Both the position numbers and the translations under genes were made by a program. A stretch of DNA of 64,000 nt from an uncultured virus (IMG/VR IMGVR_UViG_3300023710_000222) (Duplodnaviria > Heunggongvirae > Uroviricota > Caudoviricetes). The notes under the pieces are model-generated. The model ran no database searches. It was given only the letters and a program-made list of their open reading frames with translations, and was not told where the DNA came from. Positions within the stretch are counted from its first letter, which is position 1. Each line of letters starts with the position of its first letter. The stretch lies in the IMG/VR virus record IMGVR_UViG_3300023710_000222; one strand, 5' to 3'. This document shows, piece after piece, positions 1 through 23,186 of the stretch.

Positions 1-1281
1 ATGAGAACGAGTCATGTAGATGTCATTTTTGACAAAAGAAAAAGAGTTGCCAAGTGTGGCAAAGGATTGGCTGAGTATCGCCTTTATCTGGCTGATGGGG
101 TCAGAAAGTACATCCCCATCGCTGAAATTACCCCATCTGAGTGGGAGCATTTCACTGAGAGTTTTGTTATCCAGGAACAGATCTCGAAGTACGAACAAAT
201 GCTTTCAGCTATGGAGTATATGGGAAAACCTCTCACCTTGGATAACGTCAATGAGGTTCTTGGCGTTGAAACAAGGAAGACTAAAGCTGAGAAACAGAAA
301 GAAGAACGTGAAAAGAAGGCGAAGTCCAAGAACAGCTTCATCCTATTTTTCTATGACCAGCTGGCAGCAGAGAAGATTCAGCGACGCACCGTACAGGCAC
401 GCGAAGTAGTATATAACTCATTACTTGCCTTTGGCCGCATCAAGAACTTTGAGGACTTGACCCCTGCCAACATCCTCGACTACCACAATTGGCTTCAGAA
501 GGACGGCAAGCGCAAGGCCACTACCCTGAAGCACTATCACAAGCGTCTGCACCGCTATGTGCTAAAGGCTTTTGAATACGGCTATATCGACCGTGACCCC
601 TACAAGCTTGTGAAGATACCTACTGGCCAATATGAGGAGCGTCGCCCTCTTAATGAGGATGAGATCAACCTACTTCGCTCCCTGCGCCTTCCCCTGAAAG
701 AGGAAAAAGCCCGTGACCTCTTCATCTTCTCTTGCTTCACTGGTCTTGCCTACTGTGATGCACAGCTCTTCGATTTCCACACAATGACAGAGAAGGAAGG
801 TGACCTCTATTACATCGATGGAAAGCGTCTGAAGACTGGCTCCACTTTCTACACTCCCATCCTCGAACCTGCTATGGAGGTGCTGCAGAAGTACAACTAC
901 CGCTTACCCCGAATGAGCAATCAGAAGCTCAATGACTACCTTCACTTGGTTGAGAGCCGTGCATGTCTGAATAAGAAGATGACTTCTCACGTTGCCCGTC
1001 ACACCTTTGCCACCTGGGTCCTGGCACACGACGTACCCATTGAGAACGTTACCCGTATGCTTGGCCAGAAGGATGTCCGCACGACTCAGGTGTATGCCAA
1101 GATCCTCCCCACCACCATTCAGCGGCACGCAGAGACTTTGAATAAAAGCATCAAGAGCCGTCCGACAAGACCAAAAGCAAGGCCGAAGCCACAGCCACAA
1201 CCACAACCTGAAGCCGTCATTCAGCCCGTCAACACCTACAGCTACTCCTACGACAACAATTCACTTTACATAATTTTGTAG
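1..1281 (+). CDS. int: Tyrosine recombinase / integrase, Bacteroidales type
   Basis: FSCFTGLAYCD, R-x-KT, HVARHTFAT and LGQKDVRTTQVYAK boxes; SAM-like middle domain. Confidence 0.92.
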   Translation: MRTSHVDVIFDKRKRVAKCGKGLAEYRLYLADGVRKYIPIAEITPSEWEHFTESFVIQEQISKYEQMLSAMEYMGKPLTLDNVNEVLGVETRKTKAEKQKEEREKKAKSKNSFILFFYDQLAAEKIQRRTVQAREVVYNSLLAFGRIKNFEDLTPANILDYHNWLQKDGKRKATTLKHYHKRLHRYVLKAFEYGYIDRDPYKLVKIPTGQYEERRPLNEDEINLLRSLRLPLKEEKARDLFIFSCFTGLAYCDAQLFDFHTMTEKEGDLYYIDGKRLKTGSTFYTPILEPAMEVLQKYNYRLPRMSNQKLNDYLHLVESRACLNKKMTSHVARHTFATWVLAHDVPIENVTRMLGQKDVRTTQVYAKILPTTIQRHAETLNKSIKSRPTRPKARPKPQPQPQPEAVIQPVNTYSYSYDNNSLYIIL

Positions 1282-3107
1282 AAAACACCTTTCATCTTCC
1301 GCGACATTCCATTTTCCGTGAATGTCGCGGTTATTTTTTCACAAATGTAACGGAAGCCGTCAATATGGAAGATGGCTCGTGGATTAGGTACGTGGTCAGA
1401 CAGGAAGGAGAATGTGTACTTCTTCTTCAAGTCCACGTTGTATGCCGGATAGTTGATGGCATCCCGCCCATCGAACCGCAGGGATGACGGATATTGCCTA
1501 TAATGCCAGTTGGCATCTATCATGATAGTATCCACCCAGGGCATCGGCACCTCGTTCTGCGGCACCTGTCCATCCCAATAAGCCAGGTATATCTTATCGT
1601 AGTATTCCTTCACGCCCTGTTTCTCCCCCTGTGCAATCATTGCCAGCGGAAACGGATTCACCAGCTTGGAGGCATCGTTTGCTCCAAGATTGTCCTCTGC
1701 CGTCTCGTCGTAGTTGTTCATCTGTAGGAACAGCATGAAGCCGTGTTCCGCGTCCGTCTCATCCAGCCATGCGGGAACCATCTTCAGCTCATCGACCTTC
1801 TCATCCTCTTCACCCGTCATGCTGCGGTCACCGAATATATTGATGGGAACCGGAGCATAGTTGCGAGAATAGACCCAGTATGAGCCACTTGGCTGCACCT
1901 CCCCATTCTGAACTACCACCCCTTCCCTCGTCACCATCGACGTATTGCGGAAAGCGAAGTACGTATCCACTGAGCGTACATAGTGGATGGCGTTGATGAG
2001 CTGCATGTTCTCTTCCTGTTCCTGACTGTCGTTATACTGCATGATCAGCGTATGCAGGTCATGGCAGGTACTGAGGAAATCGTTCATCGTCGCGTATGTC
2101 CTCACCCTGTCCCACAATGTCCTCAGCACCCACGGGCTGGAATAATACTTCCAGGCATTGTGGTCGCAGTCTGCAAACTGCCTTTTCCTTGCAGGCAGGA
2201 ACTTGTCATTATTCTCCGAGGATATATCCACCTTATACTCATCAATGACCGTCTCGATGACCTCATCATACAGCTCATGTATGATGCTGGAGGTATATTT
2301 GAACGTCACCACCTTGTTCTTGTGGTCGATGTCAAATTCCGCATTCAGCAGCCGTTCAATCTGACTGAGCAGTTCCGTAATGCTCCAATGCGGCATCGCT
2401 CGGGCAAATGAATACACTTCCCATGCCCCGGGCAGTGTATTACAGATGAGGATAAACCGATGGTACGACTGTTCCCAATCCGTAAAGTCGTAGGTATATC
2501 CCATCGCCATCAGGATCTGCTTGACGGCATAGATAAGGAACGGCTGGAAAGACAGGCGCATCGAGTTCTGTCCGTTGCCGTATCGATATACCCAGGTGTA
2601 GTTCCCATGGTCGCCATCATACCTTGCTTCATTCTGTATGTTGCCCGAATAGCTGTTGACCCACGGCAAGGCAGTATAGGTGATGAAGTTATCTCTTATT
2701 GCCCACACTTGGCCGGGCGCGAAGTTCCTTGCCAACCCTCTCGGGTACTGGCCCCACTCAAATTCATTGATGAAGGTATTGTCAAAAGTACGCTCGAAGT
2801 TCTGCGCCGAGCGTCCTTCCAGGAACTGTGTCTTCACCTCCTTCTCCGTTACCTCCGTGATGGTGACAACACCGCTTCGGTACAGTGAGCCGTGCATCAG
2901 GACACAGTCATATACCGTTGTGTCCTTGGCCACGTCCTTTCGGTCAATGTTACCGAAGATGGCGCGGTTCTGCGGACAGTCGGCCAGCGGAAAAGTCATT
3001 GTCAGCGTATAAGAATCGCTGCCTGTGAACAGTCTGTTCTCTGAGATATAATCGAAGCTGCTCCCCTTCTTCAGGATGGCTTCCTTGTCATCTATCAGTA
3101 TAGTCAT
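1266..3107 (-). CDS. Putative phage tail protein, 613 aa
   Basis: Long ORF directly downstream of the tape measure gene; function from position only. Confidence 0.55.
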   Translation of the reverse strand: MTILIDDKEAILKKGSSFDYISENRLFTGSDSYTLTMTFPLADCPQNRAIFGNIDRKDVAKDTTVYDCVLMHGSLYRSGVVTITEVTEKEVKTQFLEGRSAQNFERTFDNTFINEFEWGQYPRGLARNFAPGQVWAIRDNFITYTALPWVNSYSGNIQNEARYDGDHGNYTWVYRYGNGQNSMRLSFQPFLIYAVKQILMAMGYTYDFTDWEQSYHRFILICNTLPGAWEVYSFARAMPHWSITELLSQIERLLNAEFDIDHKNKVVTFKYTSSIIHELYDEVIETVIDEYKVDISSENNDKFLPARKRQFADCDHNAWKYYSSPWVLRTLWDRVRTYATMNDFLSTCHDLHTLIMQYNDSQEQEENMQLINAIHYVRSVDTYFAFRNTSMVTREGVVVQNGEVQPSGSYWVYSRNYAPVPINIFGDRSMTGEEDEKVDELKMVPAWLDETDAEHGFMLFLQMNNYDETAEDNLGANDASKLVNPFPLAMIAQGEKQGVKEYYDKIYLAYWDGQVPQNEVPMPWVDTIMIDANWHYRQYPSSLRFDGRDAINYPAYNVDLKKKYTFSFLSDHVPNPRAIFHIDGFRYICEKITATFTENGMSRKMKGVFYKIM

Positions 3108-3148
3108 ACCTTAAATCTTTTACGTGCGCGTGTGCGCGAATCATTATA

Positions 3149-6100
3149 TTATCTCTGTGAGCGTGGTGTCTTGTTCCGCATCAGGTTATCATATTCCTCC
3201 TGAGCCTGTTTCGTCCCCTTATCCCCCTCAACCGTGTTGACAGTGACAAACGGCTCATTCAGTCTGCGGTTCAGCTTGTCAATAGCCGATGAATAAGAAG
3301 CGATGGCCGCTGCCGTTGCCGCCATCGTCTTCTGCAAGCGTCCGTCCGTGCTCTGACTGGCAATGACAGCCGGAGCCGTTATAGAGCGCGAGACATCTTC
3401 ACTGCGCAGTGTACCGATTGTGTTGGTTCTCTGCGCATAGTCCAGCGCATCAATCATCGGACGTGCCACTGGCGAATTGACCAGCGCCTGTGAAGCCACC
3501 CATTCCCCTGCATGGACTACGCCAACTTCCATGTCCTTCGGTCCCTTGGGCGTATAGCCACCTTCGGCATATCCCTGTGCCTCCGATGCCTGTTGCTGTT
3601 TCTTGATGGCCGCTATCTGTATAGCACCTGCAGCCACGGCCATAGCCGCTGCAATAGGTGCCAGGATATAGCCAATCATAGGCACCTGTGCCGCAGAACT
3701 GTAGGCATTGATAGCCGCCATCGCCGTCTGTGCCACGGCCTGAATCACCTGCATGGCAAACATCTTTCGGTTTGCCTCGTTCTTCATCTTGGCTATCTCC
3801 TGTTCCTTCTCCCGTTCCAGTTTCTTCACCTTGTACGTATTCCCCTCGGCAAAGGAGATTTCAGCATCGTAGCGACGTGTGATGGCCGCAGTCTGTATCT
3901 CCAATTCAGACTGTATGATGTCCGACAGTCCGCTGAAGATGCTGCTCATGCCTGACACAATCGTATCGAAGCTTTCAAGTATGGCCTGCCCTCCGTCTGA
4001 GTCCATCCATTCGACCACTGCCTGTGTACTCTTCTGCATCCCATTCAGCTCTTCCATGCCATACTTGCGTATCAGTGCAGCCTTGGCTTTCTGATACGCC
4101 TCTTCGATGCGCAGTTTCTCCTTGGCATTGTTTCCGGCAAGGCGTATCTCATCCTGATACACCTGCTGCAATGCCGCCAGATCCTGGGACAATGCCTGCT
4201 GCCTCTCTGCGAGGTTCAAACCGAAATAATCCTTCTTGATTTTCTCTAACTTCTGCTGGTGTTCCTTCTCTTTCTGCTCATACTCCCTGCGTCTGCGCTC
4301 GGCATCAGCCAACAGCTTACTATGATAATCCTTCTCAGCCTGTAGACGTTCCTTCGTTCCTTCCTGATAGATGGCTACGACCTTGCGGGCGTGTTCCAGT
4401 TCCAGCATCTGAAGGGAACTCTGATACGTCTTAGTATCCATTTCCCCATCAATGTACCGCTTCTGAAGGGCTATCCGGCTTTCTTCGTATGCATCATCCT
4501 CTTCCTTTCGGGTACGTTTCAGTCCCGCTTCCGTCTGTGCCCGAAGTGCCTCATAATAGCCAGCCTCGATGCTTATCCTTTCCTGATCCGTGAGGTCTGT
4601 ATGTTCCAGCTTCTTGCGGTTGAACTCCACGGCTATCTCTTCGAGTCGTTTCTGGTACTGTTCATAATCAGCTTCGCCCTTGGCGTAGGCAATTCTGATC
4701 AGTGCCTCTTCCCGCTCTCTCCATTCCTTTTCCTGTTTGAACTTATCGCGGTTCTTCTCGTCCTCGTCTTCATCTTCATCTTCATCTTCATCATCGTCAC
4801 CATCCCCTTCTGCCATCTTTATTGCCGTTGCCTGGTCTGCAAGGGCTTGGTTCTGTGCCGTGAGGTCATCAATGATACGGTTCAACTGCTTCACTTCCTT
4901 TTCAGCCTCTTTGAGCTGAGACCGGAACACCCGATAAGCCGTAGGTGAAGCGTTAGCCTTACCTGCTGCTTCATCGGGATTGAGTCCTTCCAGGTGTTCG
5001 TACAGTAGCGCATCCTGAAGGTTTGTCGGAGCCTCCTTCTGTATCTTGCGCAGACGTTCCTCGGCCTCAGGCAGCTTTGCCAATGCCGCCTGTATCTTGG
5101 CCGTGTTCTTCAGCTGTTCCACATAGATGCCAAGCACCTCGGCGTTATGCCCTATCAGTTCCCCTTCGTCACTGAGGCTGGCGTGGTAGTCCGGGATGAT
5201 ACTTTGCAGCTCCTCGATGGCCTTGCGTCTGTTGTCAATGCTCAAAGTCTCATTCTCTATGGTGGACTTCAGCAGTTCAATACGCTTGATGTCCTCGGAC
5301 GTATTGCGTCTGGCTTCCGACTCAATATCAGCAAGTAGCTTCTGTGCCTTGCTCTGCTTATTGAACGAAGAGACGATGGCCACCCCTGCTGCCACAACAG
5401 CCGCTGCCAGCAGCGCATATATATTTGTCAATGCCGCTGTGTTCTTCTTCAGATCCGTCATAAGAAGGTTCTGTTTGGCATAGTTGCCTGTCAGTTTGGC
5501 CATACCCACCTGCAAGGCAAGATGAGCTGTCTTCAGATGCGTGACGACAACCTCATACGCCTTGGTAGCCGTTGTGGTGATGGTGGTCCAGGCATTGAGA
5601 GCCTTCAGTTTGATGGTACTCAGGTTCACCACTACGGCATAGGTGGCAATGGCAGCTGTTGTAGAGACGATTGCTTTGCGATGTTCCGATATGAATGTCA
5701 CTGTGGTACTGAGGAAGCGCAAGGTCAATGATGTAGAGGTATAGATATGCTTCATCACCGGAAGAAGCTTTTCGCCCAGCTCCACAGCCAGCTCATTGAC
5801 CCGCTTACGGGCTTTCTCAATACCCGCCTGTGCCGTGTTGTTCTGGATATCGTACATCTGTGTGACCTTGGTCGCACTGTCGAAAGCCTTCTGTGCCTCT
5901 TCCTGCTCCCACTTCACCATGTCAATGTTATTGGCCAGCGTAGCCATGACCTGTGAGGCACGTGCTCCGTTTTCACCCATGTCCTTGAAGACTGGAGCCA
6001 GTGCGTCCATGTTGCCAATCTCCTTGAATCGTTCAAGAATCATGATGAAGCCAGCGTTGGCATCCTCGGCCATGACCTTCTTGAACTGCTCTGCATTCAG

Positions 6101-7168
6101 GTTCAATGCCTTGGCAAACTTATCACTCTCCTTATAGGCATCCATAATCAGCTTCGACACAGCCGTTGCCGACATCTCCGCTGCCTGTCCGTTGGCATCG
6201 AGGACGGCACCGATGGCGATAAGCTGCGGCAGTGTCATCCCTGCAGCCTTACCCACACCACCCATACGGCGTGCGAAGTTAGCCAGGTACTCACTTCCAG
6301 CCGTACAGTTCTGGGACAGTTCTGTTATCGTTGAACCGATGGCCAACAGTGCTTGTTCCGTGCCAAGTTCATCCTTGATACCGAAGATGCTACTCAACTT
6401 GGAGAGGACAAGTGTTGCCCCGTCACCGATGTCAGCGAGTGCCACATTGATCTGGTCGGCACCACGGACATAGCCCATGATATCCTCAATTGTCTTCATG
6501 CCCAGCTTACCTGCATCCTCAGCGTACTTATTCAGTTCGATGAGCGATGTTCGGGTGTTCATCTTCTTCATCTCCTCGTTCAGTTCCTTGACCTTTTCCA
6601 TTGGCAAGGATGTGAACTTACTGACATTTGCCATCTCCTGTTCCAGTTCCGCGTAGGCATTCACGGCCGAGCGTCCGGCCATGACAAGGCCAGTCACTGC
6701 AGCAGCAGCCGTGGCGATGGTTGCTCCCCATTCGTTGAAGCCCCGGTTCAACCGTTGCAGCAGGGATTCCGACTGTCTGAGTTCCGCGTTTACGCGGTCA
6801 ATCTCAGCCTTTACCCTCTGGATCTTCTGCACCTGGATATTCCATGCTTCGCTGTCCCGCTCTATGCCGTTGAGCTGGCGGCGAAGCACTGTCAGGGTCT
6901 GATTCAGCTGCTTGGGTGTTGCCCGGTCCAGGCGTCGCAGGACATCTTCTGCCGATGCCGTTGCTGACTGAATCTGTTTGATTTGTGCGTTGGTCTGGTT
7001 GAGTTCCTTTTGGAGGCGTTTCAGCGTGGCCTTGTCCCCGCTGCGACGGGCTTTGTCAATGGCCGCTTCCAGCTGCGTGGCCTTCTGTTTGAGGTTATCC
7101 AACATCTCCTGAGCCTGTCGGCCATTGACAGTGAGGGTGACTGTAGCGTTTGTGTTTAGTTCGGACAT
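3149..7168 (-). CDS. Phage tail tape measure protein
   Basis: 1339 aa, Ala/Glu/Gln-rich and helical; TP901-like core (ELEQEMANVSK...GQAAEMSATA); C-terminal GYAEGGYT...VGVVHAGEWV motif. Confidence 0.9.
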   Translation of the reverse strand: MSELNTNATVTLTVNGRQAQEMLDNLKQKATQLEAAIDKARRSGDKATLKRLQKELNQTNAQIKQIQSATASAEDVLRRLDRATPKQLNQTLTVLRRQLNGIERDSEAWNIQVQKIQRVKAEIDRVNAELRQSESLLQRLNRGFNEWGATIATAAAAVTGLVMAGRSAVNAYAELEQEMANVSKFTSLPMEKVKELNEEMKKMNTRTSLIELNKYAEDAGKLGMKTIEDIMGYVRGADQINVALADIGDGATLVLSKLSSIFGIKDELGTEQALLAIGSTITELSQNCTAGSEYLANFARRMGGVGKAAGMTLPQLIAIGAVLDANGQAAEMSATAVSKLIMDAYKESDKFAKALNLNAEQFKKVMAEDANAGFIMILERFKEIGNMDALAPVFKDMGENGARASQVMATLANNIDMVKWEQEEAQKAFDSATKVTQMYDIQNNTAQAGIEKARKRVNELAVELGEKLLPVMKHIYTSTSLTLRFLSTTVTFISEHRKAIVSTTAAIATYAVVVNLSTIKLKALNAWTTITTTATKAYEVVVTHLKTAHLALQVGMAKLTGNYAKQNLLMTDLKKNTAALTNIYALLAAAVVAAGVAIVSSFNKQSKAQKLLADIESEARRNTSEDIKRIELLKSTIENETLSIDNRRKAIEELQSIIPDYHASLSDEGELIGHNAEVLGIYVEQLKNTAKIQAALAKLPEAEERLRKIQKEAPTNLQDALLYEHLEGLNPDEAAGKANASPTAYRVFRSQLKEAEKEVKQLNRIIDDLTAQNQALADQATAIKMAEGDGDDDEDEDEDEDEDEKNRDKFKQEKEWREREEALIRIAYAKGEADYEQYQKRLEEIAVEFNRKKLEHTDLTDQERISIEAGYYEALRAQTEAGLKRTRKEEDDAYEESRIALQKRYIDGEMDTKTYQSSLQMLELEHARKVVAIYQEGTKERLQAEKDYHSKLLADAERRRREYEQKEKEHQQKLEKIKKDYFGLNLAERQQALSQDLAALQQVYQDEIRLAGNNAKEKLRIEEAYQKAKAALIRKYGMEELNGMQKSTQAVVEWMDSDGGQAILESFDTIVSGMSSIFSGLSDIIQSELEIQTAAITRRYDAEISFAEGNTYKVKKLEREKEQEIAKMKNEANRKMFAMQVIQAVAQTAMAAINAYSSAAQVPMIGYILAPIAAAMAVAAGAIQIAAIKKQQQASEAQGYAEGGYTPKGPKDMEVGVVHAGEWVASQALVNSPVARPMIDALDYAQRTNTIGTLRSEDVSRSITAPAVIASQSTDGRLQKTMAATAAAIASYSSAIDKLNRRLNEPFVTVNTVEGDKGTKQAQEEYDNLMRNKTPRSQR

Positions 7169-7196
7169 GGTGCGATGTGTTGTGTTATAATCGCTG

Positions 7197-7232
7197 CAAA
7201 GCTACCTATTCTTCCGCGCAAGCGAAAAGACA
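7197..7232 (-). promoter_or_regulatory. Putative late promoter of the tape measure operon
   Basis: Minus strand TGTCTTTTCGC-N17-TAGCTTTG. Confidence 0.7.
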
Positions 7233-7636
7233 GCTTTAGCACAAAAACGGCCATCGGCTACCTCTTTCCCCGCAAAGCCGGGAACCATGATAAGGCTCAG
7301 AAACGGGCATTTTCGACATGCCCGAAAAGCCTGTATTCATGCGGCTTTGCGGCCATTTTTAGCCATCAATTTTTCACGATTCCTTCAATTTGTCCTAAGT
7401 TGAAGTACCTTAACTTGCTAAAAATGAGTTTTCTGGGGGTGTCGGGGGAATGAAAATTCCCCTGACTTCGCGCTATGCACCCCCCGACCGCCCTGCCTTC
7501 GCCCCTCCCTCTCGCCCTCCTTGACCTTTGCGGAATATGTAGGCGGTCTCTTTGAGAATACCCCCTTCTTGGTCTCAATGCGTTGGCTTGTCTTGTTGGT
7601 CTCATTGTTGCCGCCACCTTCAAACTTGCCGCCCTT

Positions 7637-8060
7637 GGTCTCATATCGTTGGACTTGCCTTGATGGTCTCACAATAACCTCCCGCCCTCTCACGCGCTCA
7701 CGCGCTGACCACCGCCACCCCGAAAACAGCCTTTAGGGTCTCATATCGTCATAACCGCCTCAATGGTCTCACAATAGCCTCCCGCCCTCTCACGCGCTCA
7801 CGCGCTGACCACCGCCACCCCGAAAACAGCCTTTAGGGTCTCATATCGTCATAACCGCCTCAATGGTCTCACAATAGCCTCCCGCCCTCTCACGCGCTCA
7901 CGCGCTGACCACCGCCACCCCNNNNNNNNNNATCGTCATAACCGCCTCAATGGTCTCACAATAGCCTCCCGCCCTCTCACGCGCTCACGCGCTGACCACC
8001 GCCACCCCAAAAGCCGCCTTTATGGTTACAATTCGTCATAACCGCCCCAATGGTCTCACA
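7637..8060. repeat. 100-bp tandem repeat, at least 4 units, interrupted by an assembly gap (N 7922-7931)
   Basis: CCCGCCCTCTCACGCGCTCACGCGCTGACCACCGCCACCCC recurs at 7681, 7781, 7881 and after the gap; two GGTCTCA per unit. Confidence 0.95.
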
Positions 8061-8263
8061 GCAATTCCCCACTTTCACCCTCTCACACATACCCGACAGC
8101 CGCCACGACAGCCCCGCACGACATCCGAAAACGCCCCTTTGATGGTCTCAATGCGACTTGTGAACCCTCGCGCCTCTGCCGCTTGTGCTTTTGTCATCTT
8201 CGAGCCGCGAAGCGCGGTGGTGGCCTTTATGCGTGGAAAAGATGTGTGTGGCAGTCAGCCACT

Positions 8264-8272
8264 TACATTTGC
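8264..8272 (+). promoter_or_regulatory. Bacteroidetes -7 promoter element ahead of the structured region
   Basis: TACATTTGC matches TAnnTTTG. Confidence 0.45.
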
Positions 8273-9310
8273 AGTGTCTCACGGCTCAATACCCATTGAG
8301 CGGTAAAGAGACATTGGGGCCGACTGAAAGGAGGATTGCAGCGGGAAAAGGTGGCAGCGAGTGGCCTGGCTCCAGGCTTCGCCGTCCCTTTTCAAGCTGC
8401 AACGATAAGGCTTTTCATCCTGAAGTGCCTTATCGCCACTATCTAAATTCTTTCCTCTCTCCCCTTCCGAATACCACACGGATGCCAAGGTAAGTCAGCG
8501 TTTAGGCTATGCCGTTAAGAACGCCGACCTGCCTTGGTATTGGTGTGCGTATTGGACGGGGGCTTTGGAGGCACACTTGTATGCCTTCGTCAAGTGAGGC
8601 CTTGCCTCATGGAGGGTGCGGCATTTGAGCCGCTGGGAGGTGACGAGTGCCTTGCCCTGCCGTGTGCTGCTTGTCAGCCACAGCATGACAAGGCTTTCGT
8701 GGGTATTGTTCTATAGCAGCTTATCTTCGGGACGTGGATTTTCCGCCCATGCCATTTGCGTGGACGATTGCGATGCCCGGCAATGAGGCTGGAAAATCCA
8801 CATCCCAGAAGATGTGCTGCAGAACTGAGAAAGAGCCATTCGGCTTATCATGTCATTAGGCTTCAGCCCAATGATGTTGATGTGCCAGGAATGGCTTTGA
8901 TGGTGCGGCATTTATGCCGCTGGGAGGTGACGAGTGCCTTGTTTTGCCGTGCGCTGCCTGTCAGCCCACAGCAATGCAAGGCTTTCGTGAATAACCTGTC
9001 CCGAGGCTCTTCTTCAAGTACAGACTTGTCTATACTTCGGAGATGTGCCGAGGGATAAGTAGCCCTTGGGCTTTTATCAGGCATCGGCTCTTGCCGTCGT
9101 GCCTATGTGGTGGCCGTCACAGACAGAGGTGGTACTTGCCTACGGTGTGTGCTGCCTCTTGCGTGGCCGTAAGCAAATACCCCTCCGTCCGTGACGATGT
9201 GCGGTGGCGGCACAGACAGCAAGAGCAGATGGGGTTCGCGGGTGGGATTAAGCACTCTTCTTTCCTCTTTCAATAGGAGCCATCCGCCCCAACACTGGAG
9301 CGGATGACAC
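8273..9310 (+). ncRNA. Candidate large structured ncRNA (or structured ssDNA region)
   Basis: Back-to-back long imperfect hairpins, a duplicated ~87-nt module (8615-8701, 8902-8989) and no credible ORF. Confidence 0.5.
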
Positions 9311-9335
9311 CTGCACAAACGGCACAGCCACGTAC

Positions 9336-9959
9336 TCAGAGGACTCTGAATACATGGCCGTGCTCACCCATCGTGTAGTCAGTCATGAATAGATCACGTG
9401 CGAAAGCCTTATAATCAAAGTAACTTGACAAGCTTCCCATCATGTTATCGATATTGTAGCAGTCATTCACAAGCTGCTCAGCGAAGTCCTCCTCACTGTC
9501 CCACTCACCGCAGTAGGCTTCCTCAAAACTATCGAAGTCATCATCACTGCGAGTATCCATGTAGTCATCGAAAGCTTCTTGCCGTGATTCGTCCATTTCG
9601 GCGTACTTCTTTATTTTATCGAATGTCTCTTCATCCATGCAGCTCTCCGAGTACCAATCACGAGGGAAGTTCTCATAGTCCTGGAACATCAGTTCAGGAT
9701 CCTCTTCATCGCGGTGCAACAGTCGGCACACTTCCATGAACTCGTCGTAGTCTTTGAATGAGGCCAGATCCAGCCAGGCGCCGTCAATGCTGCCCTCATT
9801 GTATTTACGGTATGTCCCACAATAAACAGCGGGATTGCCTGATGTGTAATCGTAGCCGTGTTCACGGATGCGTTCATCAGCTTCCAGAGCCTCGCCCAGC
9901 TTGACTGTTACGAACTCCTGTTCAAGTTCTTGTTCGGAAAATAGATTCTTGTCTTGCAT
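9336..9959 (-). CDS. ardA: Antirestriction protein ArdA (acidic DNA mimic)
   Basis: VYCGTYRKYNEGSIDGAWLDL, ELMFQDYE and YFDYKAFARDLF motifs; very acidic. Start moved to the ATG at 9959 (MQDKN). Confidence 0.9.
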   Translation of the reverse strand: MQDKNLFSEQELEQEFVTVKLGEALEADERIREHGYDYTSGNPAVYCGTYRKYNEGSIDGAWLDLASFKDYDEFMEVCRLLHRDEEDPELMFQDYENFPRDWYSESCMDEETFDKIKKYAEMDESRQEAFDDYMDTRSDDDFDSFEEAYCGEWDSEEDFAEQLVNDCYNIDNMMGSLSSYFDYKAFARDLFMTDYTMGEHGHVFRVL

Positions 9960-9986
9960 AACTTTGATAATGTTTGGGTTAATACT

Positions 9987-10225
9987 TTGCCTCTGTGTGA
10001 GGCGTAACTCTTTTTTACGGTGCTTTATCAAAGGTAGCTGTGTGCAGACAAGCAAGGCCGAAGGAAGATTATTCACCCCTGGGCGTAGCAGAAATTGAAT
10101 AACAGTGCAGCCGTTGTTCCATTTGTGAGAAAAATCTTTTGTAGCCAAGGCCTCCGGCCAGCCTTTCATGTCAAAGCACGGTGATTTACCTTTGCGCCGG
10201 AAAAGAGAGTTACGCACAGAGGCAA
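9987..10225. promoter_or_regulatory. Fold-back element copy 1 (ssDNA-promoter-like) upstream of ardA
   Basis: Arms TTGCCTCTGTG..GCGTAACTCT..CAAAGGTA and TACCTTTG..AGAGTTACGCACAGAGGCAA are complementary; core shared with 24142-24408. Confidence 0.6.
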
Positions 10226-10533
10226 GTTCCAAACATGAAGTTGAGCAAGAACAGACAAGAATCCCGAAACAAGAACATTGGAGTCAAGTCAAGCACCATC
10301 AGCGAGGCCACGGCTGTACCTTTGCTGCCGTGCAGAAGCAAGAGGCATCCCGTCTGTGTGGAATCATACCGGATGAGGGTCATTGATACCATGTTTAAGA
10401 AGAGCTGGCCGCCCTCGATGACTACTTCCTCATGTGTGCCATCAGACCGTTACACCGCCATGAAAAACGAGGAGCCTTTAGGCCGCAGAACTTTTCGCAG
10501 GTACTCGGAATTAGAGCTGCATCGTTGAAGAGC

Positions 10534-10567
10534 AAAAAAATCCCGCCGTAGATGGACCACAGCGGGA
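10534..10567 (-). terminator. Putative intrinsic terminator after the lysis genes
   Basis: TCCCGC...GCGGGA stem followed by a T7 run on the minus strand. Confidence 0.55.
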
Positions 10568-10600
10568 AGCAGACTATATGGATGCAGTGATAATAACTTC

Positions 10601-11188
10601 CTACCTTTTGAATTTGCTAGCTGCAAGTAGTAGGACACCGAGGAGGATGGCAATAGCCATGATAAGGAATGCAAGATTACGGAATGTATTGGGAGGCTTC
10701 ACCACTTTCTCTAAATCGCCCGTTTCAGTGACCTTTTGATGACCGAAACGATGGGTAGAGACTGTATCTACAGACAGGCTCTCAGCACCTGCCGTTTGTG
10801 TATGTGTCAGCTGTGTGTTGGAGCGGATGCCCTTCAAAGACAGCCTTGCCGCGAGCCGCCCCGAAGCTTTAGATCGGGGCGGTCTCGTAGCGGCAAGGCT
10901 GTCATTATCCACACTAGGAATTTCGAGTGTGAAGATCTCCAGTTCGAGGCTGTCAGCCTCAATTGAATGCGTAGCATTGAGACTGTCGAAGAGCGCGAAG
11001 ATAGACTGTCCTAGGGACACCCGTTCTACGTGTTCTTCAAGTTGTTGAGTTGCTTCAATCTTTGTACTCTTTTTAACTGAGCCACAGGCAGTAAAGACTA
11101 CAAGGATAAAGAACAGTGCGAAGCACCGCGCGACCCTGAAAGCATACGTTCCAGGGTGGGCGGGATGGAAAGGAACGTATGCTTTCAT
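10601..11188 (-). CDS. Lipoprotein with C-terminal TM helix, unimolecular-spanin-like
   Basis: Hydrophobic signal ending FTAC, C-terminal hydrophobic helix, follows holin and endolysin. Confidence 0.55.
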   Translation of the reverse strand: MKAYVPFHPAHPGTYAFRVARCFALFFILVVFTACGSVKKSTKIEATQQLEEHVERVSLGQSIFALFDSLNATHSIEADSLELEIFTLEIPSVDNDSLAATRPPRSKASGRLAARLSLKGIRSNTQLTHTQTAGAESLSVDTVSTHRFGHQKVTETGDLEKVVKPPNTFRNLAFLIMAIAILLGVLLLAASKFKR

Positions 11189-11640
11189 GGGAGCGCTTTT
11201 TTGATGTCCATGTTGGAAATATACTCATATTCTTTTTTCGCATCGAACGATGGACAATCCTTTTTTGCGAAGTCCCGATGGCCATAAATCTTAGCCTCCG
11301 GGAAGGCCGCTTTGAGCAATTGAAGCAGAACCTTCATAGCCTCTTTCTGTTCTGGAGTGCGTGTATCTTCAGGTGTGCGTCCGTCCTCTTTGCGCACGCC
11401 ACCGATATAGCATACTCCGATGCTGTGTTTGTTGTGGCCACCTTCTTTACAGTGGGCACCTTCTTCTTCTATGGGCCTGCCTAAATGGATGGTGCCGTCA
11501 AGGTAGATGACATAGTGATAGCCGATACAACGGAAGTTGAATGGCGGTTTGCGGTGCCAGCTATCAATGTCTTCTACAGTGAAGTTAGCCCCTTTGGGCG
11601 TGGCACTGCAATGAACGATGATTTCATTGATCTGTCTCAT
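11185..11640 (-). CDS. N-acetylmuramoyl-L-alanine amidase (T7-lysozyme-like endolysin)
   Basis: IIVHCSAT, IGYHYVI, GAHC, SIGVCYIGG and GHRD..KDCPSFD motifs. Confidence 0.92.
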   Translation of the reverse strand: MRQINEIIVHCSATPKGANFTVEDIDSWHRKPPFNFRCIGYHYVIYLDGTIHLGRPIEEEGAHCKEGGHNKHSIGVCYIGGVRKEDGRTPEDTRTPEQKEAMKVLLQLLKAAFPEAKIYGHRDFAKKDCPSFDAKKEYEYISNMDIKKALP

Positions 11641-11878
11641 TTTGTGTTGAAGTTTTAGTTAGTTGTTTCTTGATGTCTGAGAACTTGGAATTGATATACA
11701 CGTTGATGCCGAGAGCGCTGCCCGCATATACGAGGCATTGTGCGGTGAACATCAGCACCGAGTCGGAGATTTCCCCCATAGGAGGTACGACGAATCCCGC
11801 GATGGAGAGGCCGACACCAGCCACTAGCATGGCGACGGCGGTAAAGACCTGGATGTCTGTTCGAGTTTCTTTTGTCAT
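11624..11878 (-). CDS. Putative holin
   Basis: 84 aa with two TM segments, overlapping the endolysin start. Confidence 0.65.
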   Translation of the reverse strand: MTKETRTDIQVFTAVAMLVAGVGLSIAGFVVPPMGEISDSVLMFTAQCLVYAGSALGINVYINSKFSDIKKQLTKTSTQNETDQ

Positions 11879-11890
11879 GGCTTTACATAT

Positions 11891-13219
11891 TTAGCTATTT
11901 GATAAGGAGCGTTCTAGAATTACCTCATACGAGCCACTGACATTTCTGTTATGGTCAGTGAGCGTGATTGTCAATTTGCCATTTCCGTTGCCTTGCCAGT
12001 AGTCATCTTCGTCTGCAATGAAAGTGACATAACGTTTTCCACCTTCATATTCCACATGGAAAACACTGTCATTTGTACCTAGTGACCATGTTACATTGCA
12101 GTCCATGGCACTCACCGAGTTTTCATCTTCATCCATTGCACTCAGTTGAATATCTACTTCAACACTTGATGCAATAGTGCACCCACTGCTAGTTACGTTC
12201 CTTACAGGAATGACGATAGTTGAAGGATTAGCAAAAGCAAACAGCTTTGCCTTCAATACATATCTGTTATCCAGACTGTTAAATCTATCATAGATACTCG
12301 ATATACTATCCTGCAGGTTAGATATTCCACTTTGCAGCTCGACTATTGTGAGTAACATGTCATTAACCTGCTCATCGAGGCTGTTCAATATTCTAAGATT
12401 CTCCTTTGTCATCAGTCCGGCATAGTTGCTGTTAGCCTGTCCTATGGTAAGTGCCAGTACTCCGGCGTTGTTTTCCATGAACGGATGCACCAGCTTGATG
12501 GTTGCAGTCGTTGCCGTGCGGCTTACGCCGATGTCCGTTCCTACAGAACTCCAGCTTCCCACTGACGAGATGGCCGTGCGCAGATTGTTTGTGAAGGTGA
12601 TTGTTCTCTGACTGTGTTTATTACCAGCAAAGTAAAGATTCTGAACCGTCGTTGTCGCATTGTGCGTTTGATGGATCATTCCCACGTTGTTGCCATATTT
12701 GTAGATAATCCATTTGATGCGAGTGGCTGATGCAATGGCCAGCTGTGCTGCCGCTTCCTCTCCTGGGGAAGATGCACTGCCCACGTCACCGAGGAAACGG
12801 ATTCCCATGTTTTCTAGTTCAACCTTATTGGCTATCCCTGTGATTCTGGTATAGTCCGTAGGGCTGATGACTCCGGCCAGTGTGGCTGATGCCAAGGGGA
12901 TGCTGATATTGACGGCACTTGTATCATCATCACCCTCTGTAAGCGTCAGCGTAATGTTGACAGCCTCTGCTGTACGTGTCACCCTTGATGCGATATTGAC
13001 TATTGCCGTATTCTTCAGCGCATCAAACTCTTCAGGGTCAACCCCATCTGTAGAGCCACCAACCTGGATGTTTGCCAGCTGTGAATCCGTTGCACAGTTG
13101 GCGATGAGGTTTGCCAGCTGCTGCAGCAGTGCGCCTATCCTCTCCGGAGTGATGCTTGCCTCCTGAGTCTCAGCACGGAGGGAAGATATGACTGATGTGA
13201 TGGAAGTAATGTTGTTCAT
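11891..13219 (-). CDS. Putative tail fibre / virion appendage protein
   Basis: Ser/Thr/Asn-rich; ETQEASITPERIG N-terminus, repeated A..AG(V/L)(I/M) motifs, coiled coil. Start moved to 13219 because the upstream in-frame part overlaps a promoter. Confidence 0.55.
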   Translation of the reverse strand: MNNITSITSVISSLRAETQEASITPERIGALLQQLANLIANCATDSQLANIQVGGSTDGVDPEEFDALKNTAIVNIASRVTRTAEAVNITLTLTEGDDDTSAVNISIPLASATLAGVISPTDYTRITGIANKVELENMGIRFLGDVGSASSPGEEAAAQLAIASATRIKWIIYKYGNNVGMIHQTHNATTTVQNLYFAGNKHSQRTITFTNNLRTAISSVGSWSSVGTDIGVSRTATTATIKLVHPFMENNAGVLALTIGQANSNYAGLMTKENLRILNSLDEQVNDMLLTIVELQSGISNLQDSISSIYDRFNSLDNRYVLKAKLFAFANPSTIVIPVRNVTSSGCTIASSVEVDIQLSAMDEDENSVSAMDCNVTWSLGTNDSVFHVEYEGGKRYVTFIADEDDYWQGNGNGKLTITLTDHNRNVSGSYEVILERSLSNS

Positions 13220-13273
13220 TGTGCGGTAGTATTTGTGTTTGTGTTTGTGATGTGATAGCCTGTTTTTCAGTTG

Positions 13274-13309
13274 CAAATGTACATACATATATACATGTGC
13301 GAAAAGACA
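13274..13309 (-). promoter_or_regulatory. Putative late promoter of the tail fibre / lysis operon
   Basis: TGTCTTTTCGC-N17-TACATTTG. Confidence 0.7.
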
Positions 13310-13321
13310 GATTTGACACCT

Positions 13322-13768
13322 TCATGCCCTCATGGTACCATGATAGCGTCGGAAGTTATAGTCATCCAGTGCCTCATTGATGATGCCGATGAACTCCTTG
13401 CCCAAGTTGTCTGCGTAGAACTCCTTGATGTTCATGAAGCTGGCATAGTACTTGATGGAGAACCAGCGGCGACGTTGGCGTACCTTGGCACGTCCTATGT
13501 CGCCCGGATTCCCTCGCGGCGTTTCGCGTCCCGTGCCATAGTCCTGCCACAGGCCGTATTCACGGAAGGCTTGGGTGAGGTGCACATCCACCAGCTTCCC
13601 GTCGGCCTTATAGCCGAGTGAGACGGGAGAATTGAGCAGCGTCTTGGTGTCAATGACATCAAGGAGCGTGATACGTTCCTTCCAAATCTTGATCATCGTG
13701 TCATTGAAGGCCGCGACATATTTTTGTCGTTCTTGCAGGGCCTGTTCCTGTGTCTGTTGCTGTGGCAT
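13322..13768 (-). CDS. Phage hypothetical protein (tail completion-like position)
   Basis: 148 aa ORF tightly packed in the morphogenesis region. Confidence 0.6.
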   Translation of the reverse strand: MPQQQTQEQALQERQKYVAAFNDTMIKIWKERITLLDVIDTKTLLNSPVSLGYKADGKLVDVHLTQAFREYGLWQDYGTGRETPRGNPGDIGRAKVRQRRRWFSIKYYASFMNIKEFYADNLGKEFIGIINEALDDYNFRRYHGTMRA

Positions 13769-13771
13769 AGC

Positions 13772-14314
13772 TTAATCGTATGACTGAGTGAACTGAGGAG
13801 AGAACGCGCCCATTTCCGGCAAGTTCTCCCATTCTGAAAAGCGAAAGCGTAGGTCGGTGAATGTGTCCACTGCCACTTGGAAGTAGGCACATGCACATCC
13901 GGAGAAGAAGTATTCGTCTATCTCCTGGAACTGTATTCGTTGGTCAAGGTAGATGGCATTCTGTTCGAGTCGTGTCCTTTCAAGGATGAGTCTCGACATG
14001 AATTGCCGGAATACTTCTCGCATTGTATCAAGGCATCTGCCACGTGCCGCCATATCGTCAATGGCGTGCCGTTTGGCGAAAAACACCGTCTTGATGCATC
14101 GTGTGTGCGGGCTGTTTGTGAGGTCGGTATAACCCTGTGAGCTGTCATCCACAGCGATGATGGCAGTAGCTGTCTGCAAACGCGCAAGTGCTTCCTCGAA
14201 GCCTTGCAGTCCTGTAACCCTGCAGAACTTGAAGCCCTGTTCCTGGGCGAGCTTGTTCTGCTCTGTAAGTTGTTTGAAGAACGCCGTGGCGTTCCAGTTG
14301 ATGTTTGGTATCAT
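13772..14314 (-). CDS. Phage hypothetical protein, 180 aa
   Basis: Protein-like sequence starts at MIPNINWN (ATG 14314); the upstream part of the track ORF is translated repeat. Confidence 0.65.
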   Translation of the reverse strand: MIPNINWNATAFFKQLTEQNKLAQEQGFKFCRVTGLQGFEEALARLQTATAIIAVDDSSQGYTDLTNSPHTRCIKTVFFAKRHAIDDMAARGRCLDTMREVFRQFMSRLILERTRLEQNAIYLDQRIQFQEIDEYFFSGCACAYFQVAVDTFTDLRFRFSEWENLPEMGAFSPQFTQSYD

Positions 14315-14358
14315 GGAGAATGGGATGAAAAATGAAAAGTGAAAAGAGAAAATGTAAA

Positions 14359-14930
14359 ATTGGGTTCGGCTCCCCGAATAGCGGCAGCGTCTGTCTTGGG
14401 GGCATGGGGTACTCCCCATAAACACCTCGGGGCTTGGGCATCTCCCAAATACACACCATCGGAGATATGGGGCTTGGGGACTCCCAAACAGCTTGCGTCC
14501 TTCTGATTGGGGTTCGGCATTCTCCCGAATAGCGGCAGCGTCTGGCTTGGGGGCATGGGGTACTCCCCATATACACCTCGGGGCTTGGGCATTCTCCCAA
14601 ATACACACCATCGGAGATATGGGGCTTGGGGACTCCCAAACAGCTTGCGTCTTTCTGATTGGGTTCGGCTCCCCGAATAGCGGCAGCGTCCTGTCTTGGG
14701 GGCATGGGGTGCTCCCCATATACACCTTGGGGCTTGGGCATTCTCCCAAATACACACCATCGGAGATATGGGGCTTGGGGACTCCCAAATAGCTTGCGTC
14801 CTTCTTATTGGGGTTCGGGCATTCTCCCGAATAGCGGCAGCGTCTGTCTTGGGGGCATGGGGCACTCCCCATATACACACCATCGGAGATATACCCAGCA
14901 TCGCAGATAAACATACCATCGGAGATATGC
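14359..14930. repeat. ~150-bp tandem repeat (about 3.5 units) built of short G/C hairpins
   Basis: Units start near 14359, 14506, 14658 and 14807; each has four GGG-loop-CCC stems. Confidence 0.95.
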
Positions 14931-14941
14931 CCCGAACAAGT

Positions 14942-15688
14942 TTACTTGTTAATCTTCCGAAGCTCTTCATATTCTTTCGCTTGTGCATTGAGTTCTGTAA
15001 GGGCTCTCCAAGTGTCCAATTGAAGGACTTCGGCTTCTTTTGTGACATCACCTTTGGTGAGGGCACGTATCTGAGCATCCATCGATTCCTGAAGATGGAT
15101 CGACAGCGAGGCACTGCCGAGCATATTCCCCTGCTTGGGGTCAAAGGGCTGGAATAGATGTGTGAAGCGGCTGCGTAACATCGTCTTGACGGAGGCGAAC
15201 CAATAGAACACCGCGACAGTCTGCGTCTTGTTGAGCCGGATGTCCTCAGCATCGTAGAGAATCGCCGCCATCTGGCGTATGATGTCCTCATCCTGTGTCT
15301 GTAGGAAACCTTGGTAGAGGTTATCCAGACAGAGGTACTTTTCAAATGGCACCCCCATCAGGTCTGCGGGCAATGACTCATGTCCGTCAATGCTCTCAGC
15401 CTTAATGGGAACAGGTGGCAGTTCATTCAGGAAAGACAGTTCGGTAGCGGCTGCTGCCGCTTGCGAGGCAGACAAGATTCCTTTTTGCTTGCCCAGTTGA
15501 ACGAGGAAGTTGTGCTTGCCCTGTGTTGCCAGAACCTTGATGCCGCTCCACCGGATTAGGCAGAAAGAACGGATAGCGGCAGCGTCATATCCTTCTGAAA
15601 GAAGGAAATAAACATATAGCTGCTGCGCAGTTGTCAACTCATTCCAGGCCTTGGGTAGTGACAGAGAAAAAGAAATAGCTGTTTCCAT
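14942..15688 (-). CDS. Phage hypothetical protein, 248 aa
   Basis: LPKAWNELT N-terminus; preceded by the late promoter motif. Confidence 0.65.
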   Translation of the reverse strand: METAISFSLSLPKAWNELTTAQQLYVYFLLSEGYDAAAIRSFCLIRWSGIKVLATQGKHNFLVQLGKQKGILSASQAAAAATELSFLNELPPVPIKAESIDGHESLPADLMGVPFEKYLCLDNLYQGFLQTQDEDIIRQMAAILYDAEDIRLNKTQTVAVFYWFASVKTMLRSRFTHLFQPFDPKQGNMLGSASLSIHLQESMDAQIRALTKGDVTKEAEVLQLDTWRALTELNAQAKEYEELRKINK

Positions 15689-15692
15689 ACTG

Positions 15693-15728
15693 CAAAAGTA
15701 CGGTAACAGCCATCAATGCGAAAAGACA
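15693..15728 (-). promoter_or_regulatory. Putative late promoter, probably giving a leaderless mRNA
   Basis: TGTCTTTTCGC-N17-TACTTTTG, then only 4 nt before the ATG at 15688. Confidence 0.7.
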
Positions 15729-15739
15729 AAAAATGTAGG

Positions 15740-17161
15740 TTATTTGACCTTGATAATATCCTTTATATCCGTCGTGTAGAACGGAGAACGGCGGTCGTGA
15801 AGGATGCTGTTGCGGAATGTGATGGCCTTGCCTGTTGCCGGATCGATGCTTCTCATTGCCTGTGCTACCATCATTGTTTCATCCCCGTGTTTACGGTTAA
15901 TGGCATCTGCAACCTCAGACAGCTTTGTAAGTTTCTGCTTCAGGATTGGCGGGATGTCAAGAAAGTTGGTCTGCAGTTCCGAATCAGGAACAATGCCGCT
16001 GACGATGACTCCGGCGCGTTTCCATTGGAAGGGAGGCCCACCCCCAGCCCCTCCCCATGGGAGGGGAGAATGTTGGCGCGTAGTTAGCAATAGTTCATCC
16101 TCATTGCTTGCAATCAACTTTTCTTCCTCTGATATATAATGGCTTATGGTTGCAGTAGATATACAACCTTCCATAGCCTTCATGGCAGCTTTGACAATCT
16201 CAGGGTCAGAGCTGGCTGGAGCCAGGAGGTTCACCGTGCGTCCGATTGACATCTGATCCAAGTCCTCGCGGAAGGGATTGGTGGACATGAAGACCGTAAC
16301 GTACTGAGCCATACTGTGCTGCGCCCTCAGCTTCTGCGCACACCGTGCCGCGAAACCCGCTATGGGCGTTGCCAACATCTCAGCAGAAGCAATCATCTTC
16401 GGGAAGCTGCGACTCGTGCAGATAGTCTGCTTGCGAGGCAGGTTATCCAGAGCTATGCAATCGCGTCCGTGCAGTTCCATCCACGTGCGAAGACCTGTGA
16501 CAGTCATTGCACGGCGCACGGACTCAGCATCAACCCGCGTAAAGTCAAGAGCGGTCTTGATGCCCCGCGCCTGTAGTCGTGCCGCATGACGTCGCCCGAT
16601 GCCCCAAACATCCTCTACAGGAAAGAGCGAAAGCGCTTTCTCCCGTTGTGTATCCGTCTCGATGAAGCAACATTTCTTGTACGCCGGATAGCGTTTGGCA
16701 AACTTGCTGGCCACCTTGGCCAGCGTCTTAGTCCGTGCAATGCCGATACTCACAGGCATTCCCGTCCACTGGCGTACCTTGGCAGCAAGCGCCTCGCCCC
16801 ACTGCTTGAAGTCCATTTTCATGTAGGGGGACTCATTCCACATCAGGAATGCTTCATCGATGCTATATACGAAAATCTCAGGCGCACTGTCACGAAGGAT
16901 ATTCATTACACGGCGGGACATATCCCCGTATAAAGTGTAGTTGCTGCTGAGTGCGTGAATCTCCTGCCCGGGGAAACGTTCTGCCAGTTGGAAGAACGGT
17001 AATCCTTCAGGTACGCCTAAGGCTTTCGCCTCCTGACTGCGTGCTACCACACAGCCGTCGTTGTTCGAGAGAACCACAACCGCCTTGCCTTCGAGTGCGG
17101 GATTAAAAACCCGTTCACAAGACACGTAACAATTATCACAATCTACGAGAGCGTATATCAT
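15740..17161 (-). CDS. umuC: Y-family DNA polymerase V catalytic subunit UmuC
   Basis: [45 protein letters not shown] and VWGIGRR motifs; start at MIYAL (17161). Confidence 0.93.
16037..16068. repeat. REP-like palindromic element inside umuC
   Basis: CCCACCCCCAGCCCCTCCCCATGGGAGGGGAG with a CCCCTCCC/GGGAGGGG stem; translated as [11 protein letters not shown]. Confidence 0.6.
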
Positions 17162-17282
17162 AGCGGGGACAAAAATACTAAAAACTGTCCAAAAAGCAGT
17201 GCAGAAGTCACATATAACCTTAAAAACAAGGTAAAATTGACCGATTTTATTTACTTTTGCACCGCAAAACAGACAATCCTTT

Positions 17283-17738: not shown

Positions 17739-17748
17739 ATCGGAATTT

Positions 17749-20206: not shown

Positions 20207-20242
20207 AGGGCAATTTATTATTGACGATTTATAGATCAATGC

Positions 20243-23154: not shown

Positions 23155-23186
23155 AAAAAGAGGGGTTAAAAGAGGAGGAAGGAGGG

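Follow-up and report, generated by a model that had tools for sequence, protein, structure and literature searches.

A lineage-restricted modular hairpin array at a cargo-exchange site of a prophage-like element from ruminant-gut Bacteroidota

Introduction

What is the role of a kilobase of DNA that carries no genes and is made almost entirely of long hairpins, in an element that otherwise resembles a prophage? The question is raised by positions 8264–9310 of a 64,000-nucleotide (nt) stretch, hereafter the window, of an uncultured virus of the Caudoviricetes (IMG/VR record IMGVR_UViG_3300023710_000222). An earlier note on this DNA had proposed that the tract is either a single large structured RNA convergent with the neighbouring gene ardA or a folded single-stranded DNA (ssDNA) element. 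In this study we undertook a computational analysis of the folding, the relatives and the surroundings of the tract, which identified it as real, unclassified and lineage-restricted. It is an array of modular hairpins where the element exchanges its cargo, and does not represent a new class of large RNA. The carrier is a prophage-like integrative element of ruminant-gut Prevotellaceae/Bacteroidaceae, and the tract occupies the gene-free end of its variable cargo ("moron") zone. All coordinates are those of the window, and the sense of the genes is its minus strand.

Results

A chain of separate long stem-loops

The tract of ~1 kb is a chain of at least ten separate, long and imperfect stem-loops of 26 to 150 nt, which make up about a dozen modules. 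No credible open reading frame (ORF) was identified in 8240–9310, where both strands hold only overlapping frames of 40–100 amino acids, in agreement with the earlier description of the tract as non-coding. Short coding ORFs across its duplicated module, module M, were considered and rejected, since the copies differ by 1-nt indels that break the shared frame. With base pairs restricted to a span of at most 160 nt, the tract folds into 15 separate stem-loop domains (8269–8319, 8330–8458, 8463–8616, 8618–8633, 8639–8704, 8708–8825, 8832–8898, 8905–8920, 8922–8996, 8997–9057, 9061–9072, 9082–9231, 9240–9257, 9265–9279 and 9281–9306). All of the stems named in the earlier note are present at about the places it gave, and they also occur in the minimum-energy folds of both strands.

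Local folding was scored in 200-nt frames, each against 25 dinucleotide shuffles. The z-scores across 8200–9399 ranged from −1.0 to −7.6 on the plus strand and from −3.0 to −11.4 on the minus strand, and those of the flanks (frames starting at 7400–8100 and 9400–10300) from −2.3 to +3.2; folding of the tract is thus far better than chance. A GC-corrected folding scan of the whole 64 kb placed 11 of its 20 outlier 150-nt frames in 8251–9450.

The modules are as follows, with L-numbers denoting the relatives described below and bit scores those of a covariance model of module M:

8248–8262, D0: tape-measure-proximal hairpin; GGC/GCC has become GAC/GTC in L093
8269–8319, D1: tape-measure-proximal hairpin with relatives in every tract-bearing lineage; 2 compensatory pairs
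8330–8458, D2: two nested or adjacent hairpins, TTGCAGC...GCTGCAA and CGATAAGGC/GCCTTATCG
8463–8616, D3: rod of ~100 nt and two small hairpins
8612–8703, M1: copy 1 of module M, 103.2 bits; loops conserved in the most distant relatives
8708–8825, D6: 118-nt rod, GGGACGTGGATTTTCC/GGAAAATCCACATCCC
8832–8898, D7: 67-nt stem-loop, AGAGCCATTC/GAATGGCTTT, in close relatives only
8899–8991, M2: copy 2 of the conserved two-hairpin module M, 112.3 bits
8997–9057, D10: stem-loop, accompanied by a 12-nt mini-hairpin at 9061–9072
9082–9231, D12: 150-nt rod of ~55 pairs; the central stem is invariant, and the base and apex vary with compensatory changes
9281–9306, D13: 26-nt stem-loop CATCCGC/GCGGATG, 30 nt beyond the ardA stop

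The duplication of a module of ~87 nt, which the earlier note had described as keeping its stems and changing its loops, was borne out in both respects. Its two copies have 88% identity and align as 8612–8679 with 8899–8966 (88%) and 8678–8701 with 8966–8989 (88%). They differ at 14 positions, 13 of which are unpaired in a module of 39 unpaired and 54 paired columns.

Maintenance of the stems

Comparison of related sequences revealed that the stems are kept through compensatory changes. For D12, which is the best resolved of the rods, five sequences could be aligned: 9 of its 55 pairs have changed on both sides, compared with 2.6 ± 1.3 in shuffled alignments, none of 500 of which reached 9, and with 0–4 two-sided changes in slid controls. 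Pairing is retained in 93.8% of the D12 alignment cells. In D6, also with five sequences, 10 of 38 pairs show two-sided changes when compared with L041 and L093, and module M and D1 have two such changes each. Compensatory pairs were also found in D2 (8341/8397 and 8406/8432) among the variants of two public sequencing runs. All of these counts come from few and related sequences, and template switching from one arm of a hairpin to the other could mimic compensation.

Among the closest relatives the constraint is moderate only. Their substitutions comprise 30 at unpaired positions, 10 that are compensated, 15 that lead to a wobble, 10 that break a pair and 7 at existing wobbles. At greater distance, units resembling M, D1 and D6 can be aligned at 65–83% identity between lineages that have only 74% identity in their tape-measure DNA, which argues for purifying selection on these units. 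The loop sequences of module M are likewise conserved across distant relatives.

Turnover of hairpins and cargo

From one relative to another, hairpins have been acquired or lost, have been duplicated and have changed their order, and the points at which cargo genes entered are the borders of hairpins. This turnover argues that the tract is not a single globular large RNA. The variable zone lies between a lysis cassette and the tract, and its cargo differs from relative to relative. The gene ardA is the cargo of the window and of L092 and L096. L039 has genes for radical-SAM/SPASM, ABM, nitroreductase and HxlR proteins in its place, and at 3715–3760 of L039 the final 26 nt of ardA and D13 are retained next to this unrelated cargo, evidence of a cargo replacement whose breakpoint lay within ardA. 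More generally, D13 stays beside ardA or an ardA remnant in the relatives, the remnant being the 3′ end of the gene in L039 and L093.

The junction of D13 and D12 has received three different inserts, of ~280 nt in L092, ~250 nt in L096 and 2.9 kb in L093. The last of these carries the cargo of L093, which consists of ArsR, thioredoxin-like and DsbD-like genes on the opposite strand. The cargo of L041 is a MutS-domain-I fragment and a gene for a BspA-type leucine-rich repeat (LRR) protein. The LRR gene (4025–4999 of L041) is flanked by a direct repeat of 290 nt whose copies, at 3523–3812 and 5085–5373, are 96–97% identical, and each copy is a unit of a D6-like hairpin, module M and a D1-like hairpin. 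Some hairpins of the relatives have no blastn match to any domain of the window, namely those at 3308–3442 and 3447–3516 of L041 and at 3566–3730 and 3734–3824 of L093.

A linkage of the tract to ardA did not hold, as L039 and L041 carry other cargo. In addition, blastn of 36 viral-contig loci with relatives of ardA aligned none of them to the tract, and nothing but ardA itself to the window. In all 36, ORFs of 100 amino acids or more begin within ~700 nt downstream of ardA, and the two loci with the strongest folding there, L037 and L033, are without a comparable array.

A narrow distribution

The tract travels with the tape-measure gene within a narrow clade of ruminant-gut prophage-like elements. 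The relatives (L039–L043 and L092–L099), which were found in viral contigs, metagenomes and ruminant-gut genome bins, have tape-measure N-termini that are 88–100% identical. L039, L092 and L096 have the entire tract at 92–94% identity, and L042 and L097, whose matches are identical, have part of it. L093 has a rearranged version at 73–83% identity, and L040, L041 and L043 (the last two with identical matches) have only the units resembling D1, M and D6. Tape-measure relatives at ~55% identity gave no blastn match to the tract; upstream of the gene they have ORFs of 110 or more amino acids on the tape-measure strand, and several are labelled as human-gut metagenome assemblies.

Of the sampled words of 7169–10300, half or more were present in 14 rows of public runs, and any part of this segment in 20 rows from 16 studies, one of them possibly the source sample. 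The labels of these runs name feces, gut, bovine or sheep metagenomes. BLAST searches gave no match to the tract among 50,697 phage and 72,556 plasmid records and none in its own genome, whose assembly is without window positions 1–18024, and there was one marginal match of 37 nt among 200 genomes of the same family. The covariance model of module M had no match in 151 family genomes and found no copies outside the tract in 75 sources. A first scan of viral contigs for exact patterns of the M and D12 cores found no contig, and later core scans of 2.9 million viral contigs found only three that were already known. At the level of titles and abstracts, the literature searched held no account of such a tract.

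The whole window gave no Rfam 15 match at the gathering threshold, in line with the earlier note, which could not assign the tract to a family. With E-values up to 1, positions 7000–10500 gave three chance matches to microRNA families, at 26–28 bits compared with thresholds of 58–93.

Genomic setting

Read in the direction of the genes, the order starts with a lysis-type cassette that encodes a 465-amino-acid protein, a small membrane protein, an amidase and a lipoprotein. Next come ardA, the tract, the GGTCTCA repeat array and a conserved leader that has a promoter-like box, and these are followed by the tape-measure gene, a 613-amino-acid gene and the integrase. The main neighbours are:

1–1281: phage-type integrase gene, 7 kb from the tract; the sole recombinase found
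3149–7168, minus strand: tape-measure gene (TIGR01760), 1339 amino acids; co-occurs with the tract in relatives
7571–8150, plus strand: GGTCTCA array, with 11 of the 13 matches in the window, in one orientation, inside 100-bp tandem repeats
9336–9962, minus strand: ardA (PF07275, E 7.6e-35), cargo gene of the window lineage
15740–17329: UmuC-like gene

Further rightward the window encodes, with the UmuC-type polymerase, a PIF1/RecD-like helicase and a DnaG-type primase, and the primase module is >50 kb from the tract. No relaxase, coupling protein, type IV secretion component or rolling-circle Rep was named by Pfam, PHROGs or NCBIfam among 62 distinct proteins of the window, many of which had no family at all. 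On this ground a conjugative leading-region reading of the locus was rejected. Both ardA and the tape-measure gene have a promoter-like box of their own on the minus strand, TACCTTTG at 10029–10036 upstream of ardA and TAGCTTTG at 7197–7204, ~30 nt before the tape-measure start codon.

A promoter motif that the earlier note had placed at the edge of the tract, TACATTTG at 8264 of the plus strand, is indeed present. Its frequency is that of chance (TANNTTTG was counted 45 times in the window, where 34.3 ± 5.8 would be expected), and the site reads TACATTTA in L039, L092 and L096 and is lost in L093. It was therefore rejected as a Bacteroidota-type promoter box, and sigma-70 promoters and canonical terminators were also at chance level in our scan.

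The GGTCTCA array is C-rich on the plus strand, with a GC skew of −0.40 to −0.51, and includes a 10-N assembly gap (7922–7931). It folds no better, or worse, than shuffled sequence, and its copy number differs among relatives and public runs. It is probably a protein-binding array beside the tract. Between it and the tape-measure gene, a non-coding block (7337–7539) is conserved at 76–82% identity in L041 and L099 and holds a G-rich hairpin, GGGGGGTG...CACCCCC.

Several other features of the window were recorded. A conserved non-coding element of ~190 nt occurs twice (10012–10195 and 24180–24367, 73% identity), once directly upstream of ardA and once before small genes of the minus strand. Both copies fold into a long hairpin, with DNA-fold z-scores of −4.15 for the ardA copy and −2.71 for the other; the ardA copy has TACCTTTG boxes on both strands, and the other copy has the exact box on the plus strand only. 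The element could be a shared promoter/operator or one resembling an ssDNA promoter. An isolated, near-perfect intergenic hairpin of ~70 nt (20219–20290, z −6.8), without a U tract, has the words CACGGCAAGGC and GAGACC in common with module M and the repeat array. A complete BREX-type set at 32438–49090 (BrxB, BrxC-like, Eco57I-type methylase, SIR2-domain protein, PglZ and BrxL), accompanied by a WYL/WCX regulator, lies in one contiguous stretch with ardA and the prophage-like genes.

The tract-bearing element itself may be only ~18–24 kb long. This is because the relevant contig of the own-genome assembly begins at window position 18025, and two viral contigs with relatives, of 18 and 24 kb, end just past the integrase. 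Searched with 8264–9310 and 9336–13288, the own genome gave no match except the paralogous element at 24 kb.

The question of strand

The evidence does not settle the strand in which the hairpins might act; it tilts slightly toward the gene-sense (minus) strand, and no single contrast is significant. The earlier note had observed more G-T than A-C mismatches on the plus strand. This stands for all predicted pairs of the window, where G·U pairs number 36 on the plus and 21 on the minus strand, but the excess is reversed (6 G-T versus 15 A-C) at wobbles inside helices common to the folds of both strands, and neither difference is significant. Counted over all alignment cells, G·U pairs number 50 antisense and 55 sense; in the core helices the counts of cells/columns are 7/5 antisense and 37/12 sense.

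The rod D12 is the clearest strand case, with alignment energies of −85.9 sense and −63.9 antisense and with six pairs of its sense fold that are G·U in at least four of the five sequences. The module M alignment also has the lower energy in sense, −39.1 versus −32.0. For the whole tract, RNA energies are −508.7 (plus) and −501.9 (minus), and DNA energies are −239.4 (plus) and −255.8 (minus).

Discussion

Cassette-end stem-loops as a tentative explanation

The reading that we favour, tentatively, is that the hairpins are RNA stem-loops at cassette ends, by which cargo transcripts are stabilised and insulated. They would act in RNA of the gene direction, that is, of the minus strand, as structures at the end of a cassette; transcription, its strand and an action at the RNA level are what we infer here. 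Such hairpins would provide 3′-end protection or processing sites and block read-through, so that the cargo message would be stabilised and the separately promoted tape-measure operon would be insulated from transcription of the cargo. The hairpins would accumulate, and come and go, along with the exchange of cargo cassettes. Consistent with this reading are the position of the tract between ardA and the tape-measure gene, each with its own promoter-like box, the turnover of cargo at hairpin boundaries, the constraint on the stems and the lean to the gene-sense strand.

A number of observations weigh against it. Terminator-like sites are at chance level in the tract (4 versus 3.5 ± 2.0 expected), all of them on the plus strand and none on the minus strand, and the sense-strand tails after D13, D12 and D10 are without a U run, while a canonical terminator with a U tract exists elsewhere in the element at ~23170–23200. 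Ten rods of up to 150 nt far exceed the needs of insulation. The conserved loops of module M point to sequence-specific recognition, which cassette ends do not explain. Two alignments have the lower energy in antisense, D6 with −29.0 versus −16.6 and D1 with −21.1 versus −18.1, and the Watson–Crick to G·U substitutions of close relatives number 9 sense and 6 antisense, in addition to 10 to mismatch. The asymmetry of the strands is thus weak and non-significant; a much stronger bias would be expected of a classical structured RNA. The single public run labelled as RNA, X20, covers small pieces only (7607–8043, 9185–9247, 9326–9502 and 12683–12842) and may contain DNA, and the four public runs examined consist of contigs, which are uninformative on strand, ends and level.

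Alternative explanations

It is possible, if rather doubtful, that the hairpins form in DNA, as cruciforms or in ssDNA of either strand, and have a role in recombination, replication priming or packaging, or as sites like a transfer origin. Covered by this reading are the folded ssDNA element of the earlier note and a version resembling an origin of transfer (oriT) or a leading region, with ardA transcribed toward the zone of hairpins and repeats. The near symmetry of G·U and A·C (55 versus 50 cells and 9 versus 6 substitutions) and the about equal fold energies of the strands speak for such a role, as does the location of the breakpoints of mosaicism and cargo exchange at the borders of hairpins. 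The oriented array of 11 GGTCTCA directly adjoins the tract, as is usual for the partners of structured DNA sites, and ardA and the UmuC-like gene are typical of plasmid leading regions, where hairpin ssDNA promoters act (PMC11541004). A 190-nt hairpin-forming element with a DNA-fold z-score of −4.15 also lies upstream of ardA. However, the tract is downstream of ardA and hence is not its ssDNA promoter, and in some relatives the tract persists although ardA is absent. A tape-measure gene and a lysis cassette are present in the element, the protein-family scans named none of the transfer or rolling-circle proteins among the 62 proteins, and the primase module is distant. In addition, the wobbles of D12 are one-sided, with the six recurrent G·U pairs on one strand only. 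A more specific proposal, which we consider improbable, is that the hairpins are folded recombination sites bounding exchangeable cassettes, like the attC sites of integrons, with the gene-free array as a stack of empty sites; this would be an integron-like means of cargo exchange in a prophage-like Bacteroidota element. It would explain the three inserts at one junction and the cargo gene flanked by a duplicated unit, and also the keeping of stems while sequences drift, the likeness of the strands and the sequence-specific loops of module M.

An unlikely origin, to our assessment, is that the tract is a by-product, consisting of quasi-palindromes that are generated and kept alike by arm-to-arm template switching and are left behind by the turnover of cassettes where no coding constraint applies. 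The fast turnover of lineage-specific hairpins, some of which in L041 and L093 match no domain of the window, would follow from such an origin, as would the equal numbers (10 each) of pair-breaking and compensated substitutions among close relatives, the lack of a strand preference and of a conserved promoter or terminator in our scans, and the narrow distribution (0 of 151 family genomes and only three of 2.9 million viral contigs). It does not account well for the units resembling M, D1 and D6, which remain alignable at the identities given above, for the retention of loops as well as stems in module M, or for the confinement of all but one of the differences between M1 and M2 to unpaired columns after their duplication. 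Homogenisation of arms should also erase mismatches, yet the G·U positions of D12 are retained in four or five of the five sequences. The single large structured non-coding RNA of the plus strand, convergent with ardA and comparable to the large ornate RNAs of prophages, is highly improbable. The ~1 kb without credible ORFs, its extreme folding, the TACATTTG box at 8264 of the plus strand, the slightly lower RNA energy of that strand and the 36 versus 21 G·U pairs among all predicted pairs speak for it. The box is, however, at chance frequency, mutated in all three close relatives and lost in L093, the stricter wobble counts favour the minus strand, and no Rfam family matched. There are also no long-range helices or junctions that are kept. 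The modules are separate rods, and close relatives differ in which of them are present, in their copies and in their order. The proposal in the earlier note of one large RNA transcribed from the plus strand therefore finds support neither in its promoter nor in a preference for that strand.

Comparison with known systems

The REP/BIME and ERIC sequences of enterobacteria, the RNase III sites of phage T7 and the sib site of lambda are imperfect, untranslated intergenic stem-loops, often in tandem. These palindromes act in the transcript, where they shield 3′ ends, mark points of processing or exert retro-regulation on an adjacent gene, and their stems persist as their sequences evolve. By analogy, the tract would be functionally most like intergenic palindromic repeats and the RNase III processing hairpins of phages, and anatomically like attC arrays. 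Its hairpins, in contrast to REP, BIME and RNase III hairpins, are much longer (up to 150 nt and ~55 pairs), with at least ten in one place. Unlike repeats of the MITE (miniature inverted-repeat transposable element) or REP-like kind, the tract is not dispersed in its own genome (searched without window positions 1–18024) or in family genomes, and inspection by eye found no target-site duplications at the flanks of D6, D7 and D12.

Integron attC sites are imperfect palindromes of ~60–140 nt that fold when single-stranded, bound cassettes, retain their structure as the sequence varies and occur in arrays. The tract resembles them in the insertion of cargo at hairpin boundaries and in the L041 gene flanked by a repeated hairpin unit. 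It differs in that no integron-type integrase is evident, only a phage-type enzyme, and most of its hairpins abut without a cassette between them. Mimicry of a host CRISPR repeat, as in RNA anti-CRISPRs, was also considered, and no own-genome match was found at E ≤0.001 in a 58-contig draft, in which such repeats are often unassembled.

The Frpo/ssi ssDNA promoters, as described in PMC11541004, lie upstream of the genes they drive and have promoter boxes in the stem. The tract has in common with them that hairpin-forming non-coding DNA stands beside ardA and umuC-type genes. It differs from them by its position downstream of ardA, without a conserved promoter box, and by its persistence in relatives that have no ardA, and the family scans of the window found no conjugation genes. 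ROOL and GOLLD are large ornate RNAs associated with prophages (PMC12286853). The tract is like them in being large, gene-free, highly structured and located in a prophage, and ROOL was also first found in rumen data. The tract is set apart from both by the lack of an Rfam match and by modular rods that have no conserved junctions and are shuffled between close relatives.

Implications

Our claim should stay modest, as the family is narrow and an origin as a by-product is possible. If the hairpins do act at the RNA level, the tract would be an unusually elaborate array of cassette ends or insulators, and would illustrate the means by which a temperate gut Bacteroidota element separates expressed cargo from structural genes that are silent. 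Little is known of terminators and RNA processing in this phylum. Should the hairpins act at the DNA level, they would mark a site of exchange for cargo that includes anti-restriction, redox and surface-protein genes, and could point to a new form of gene capture. In either case, the tract represents a compact and testable model, with about a dozen modules in one kilobase and natural variants in ruminant-gut metagenomes.

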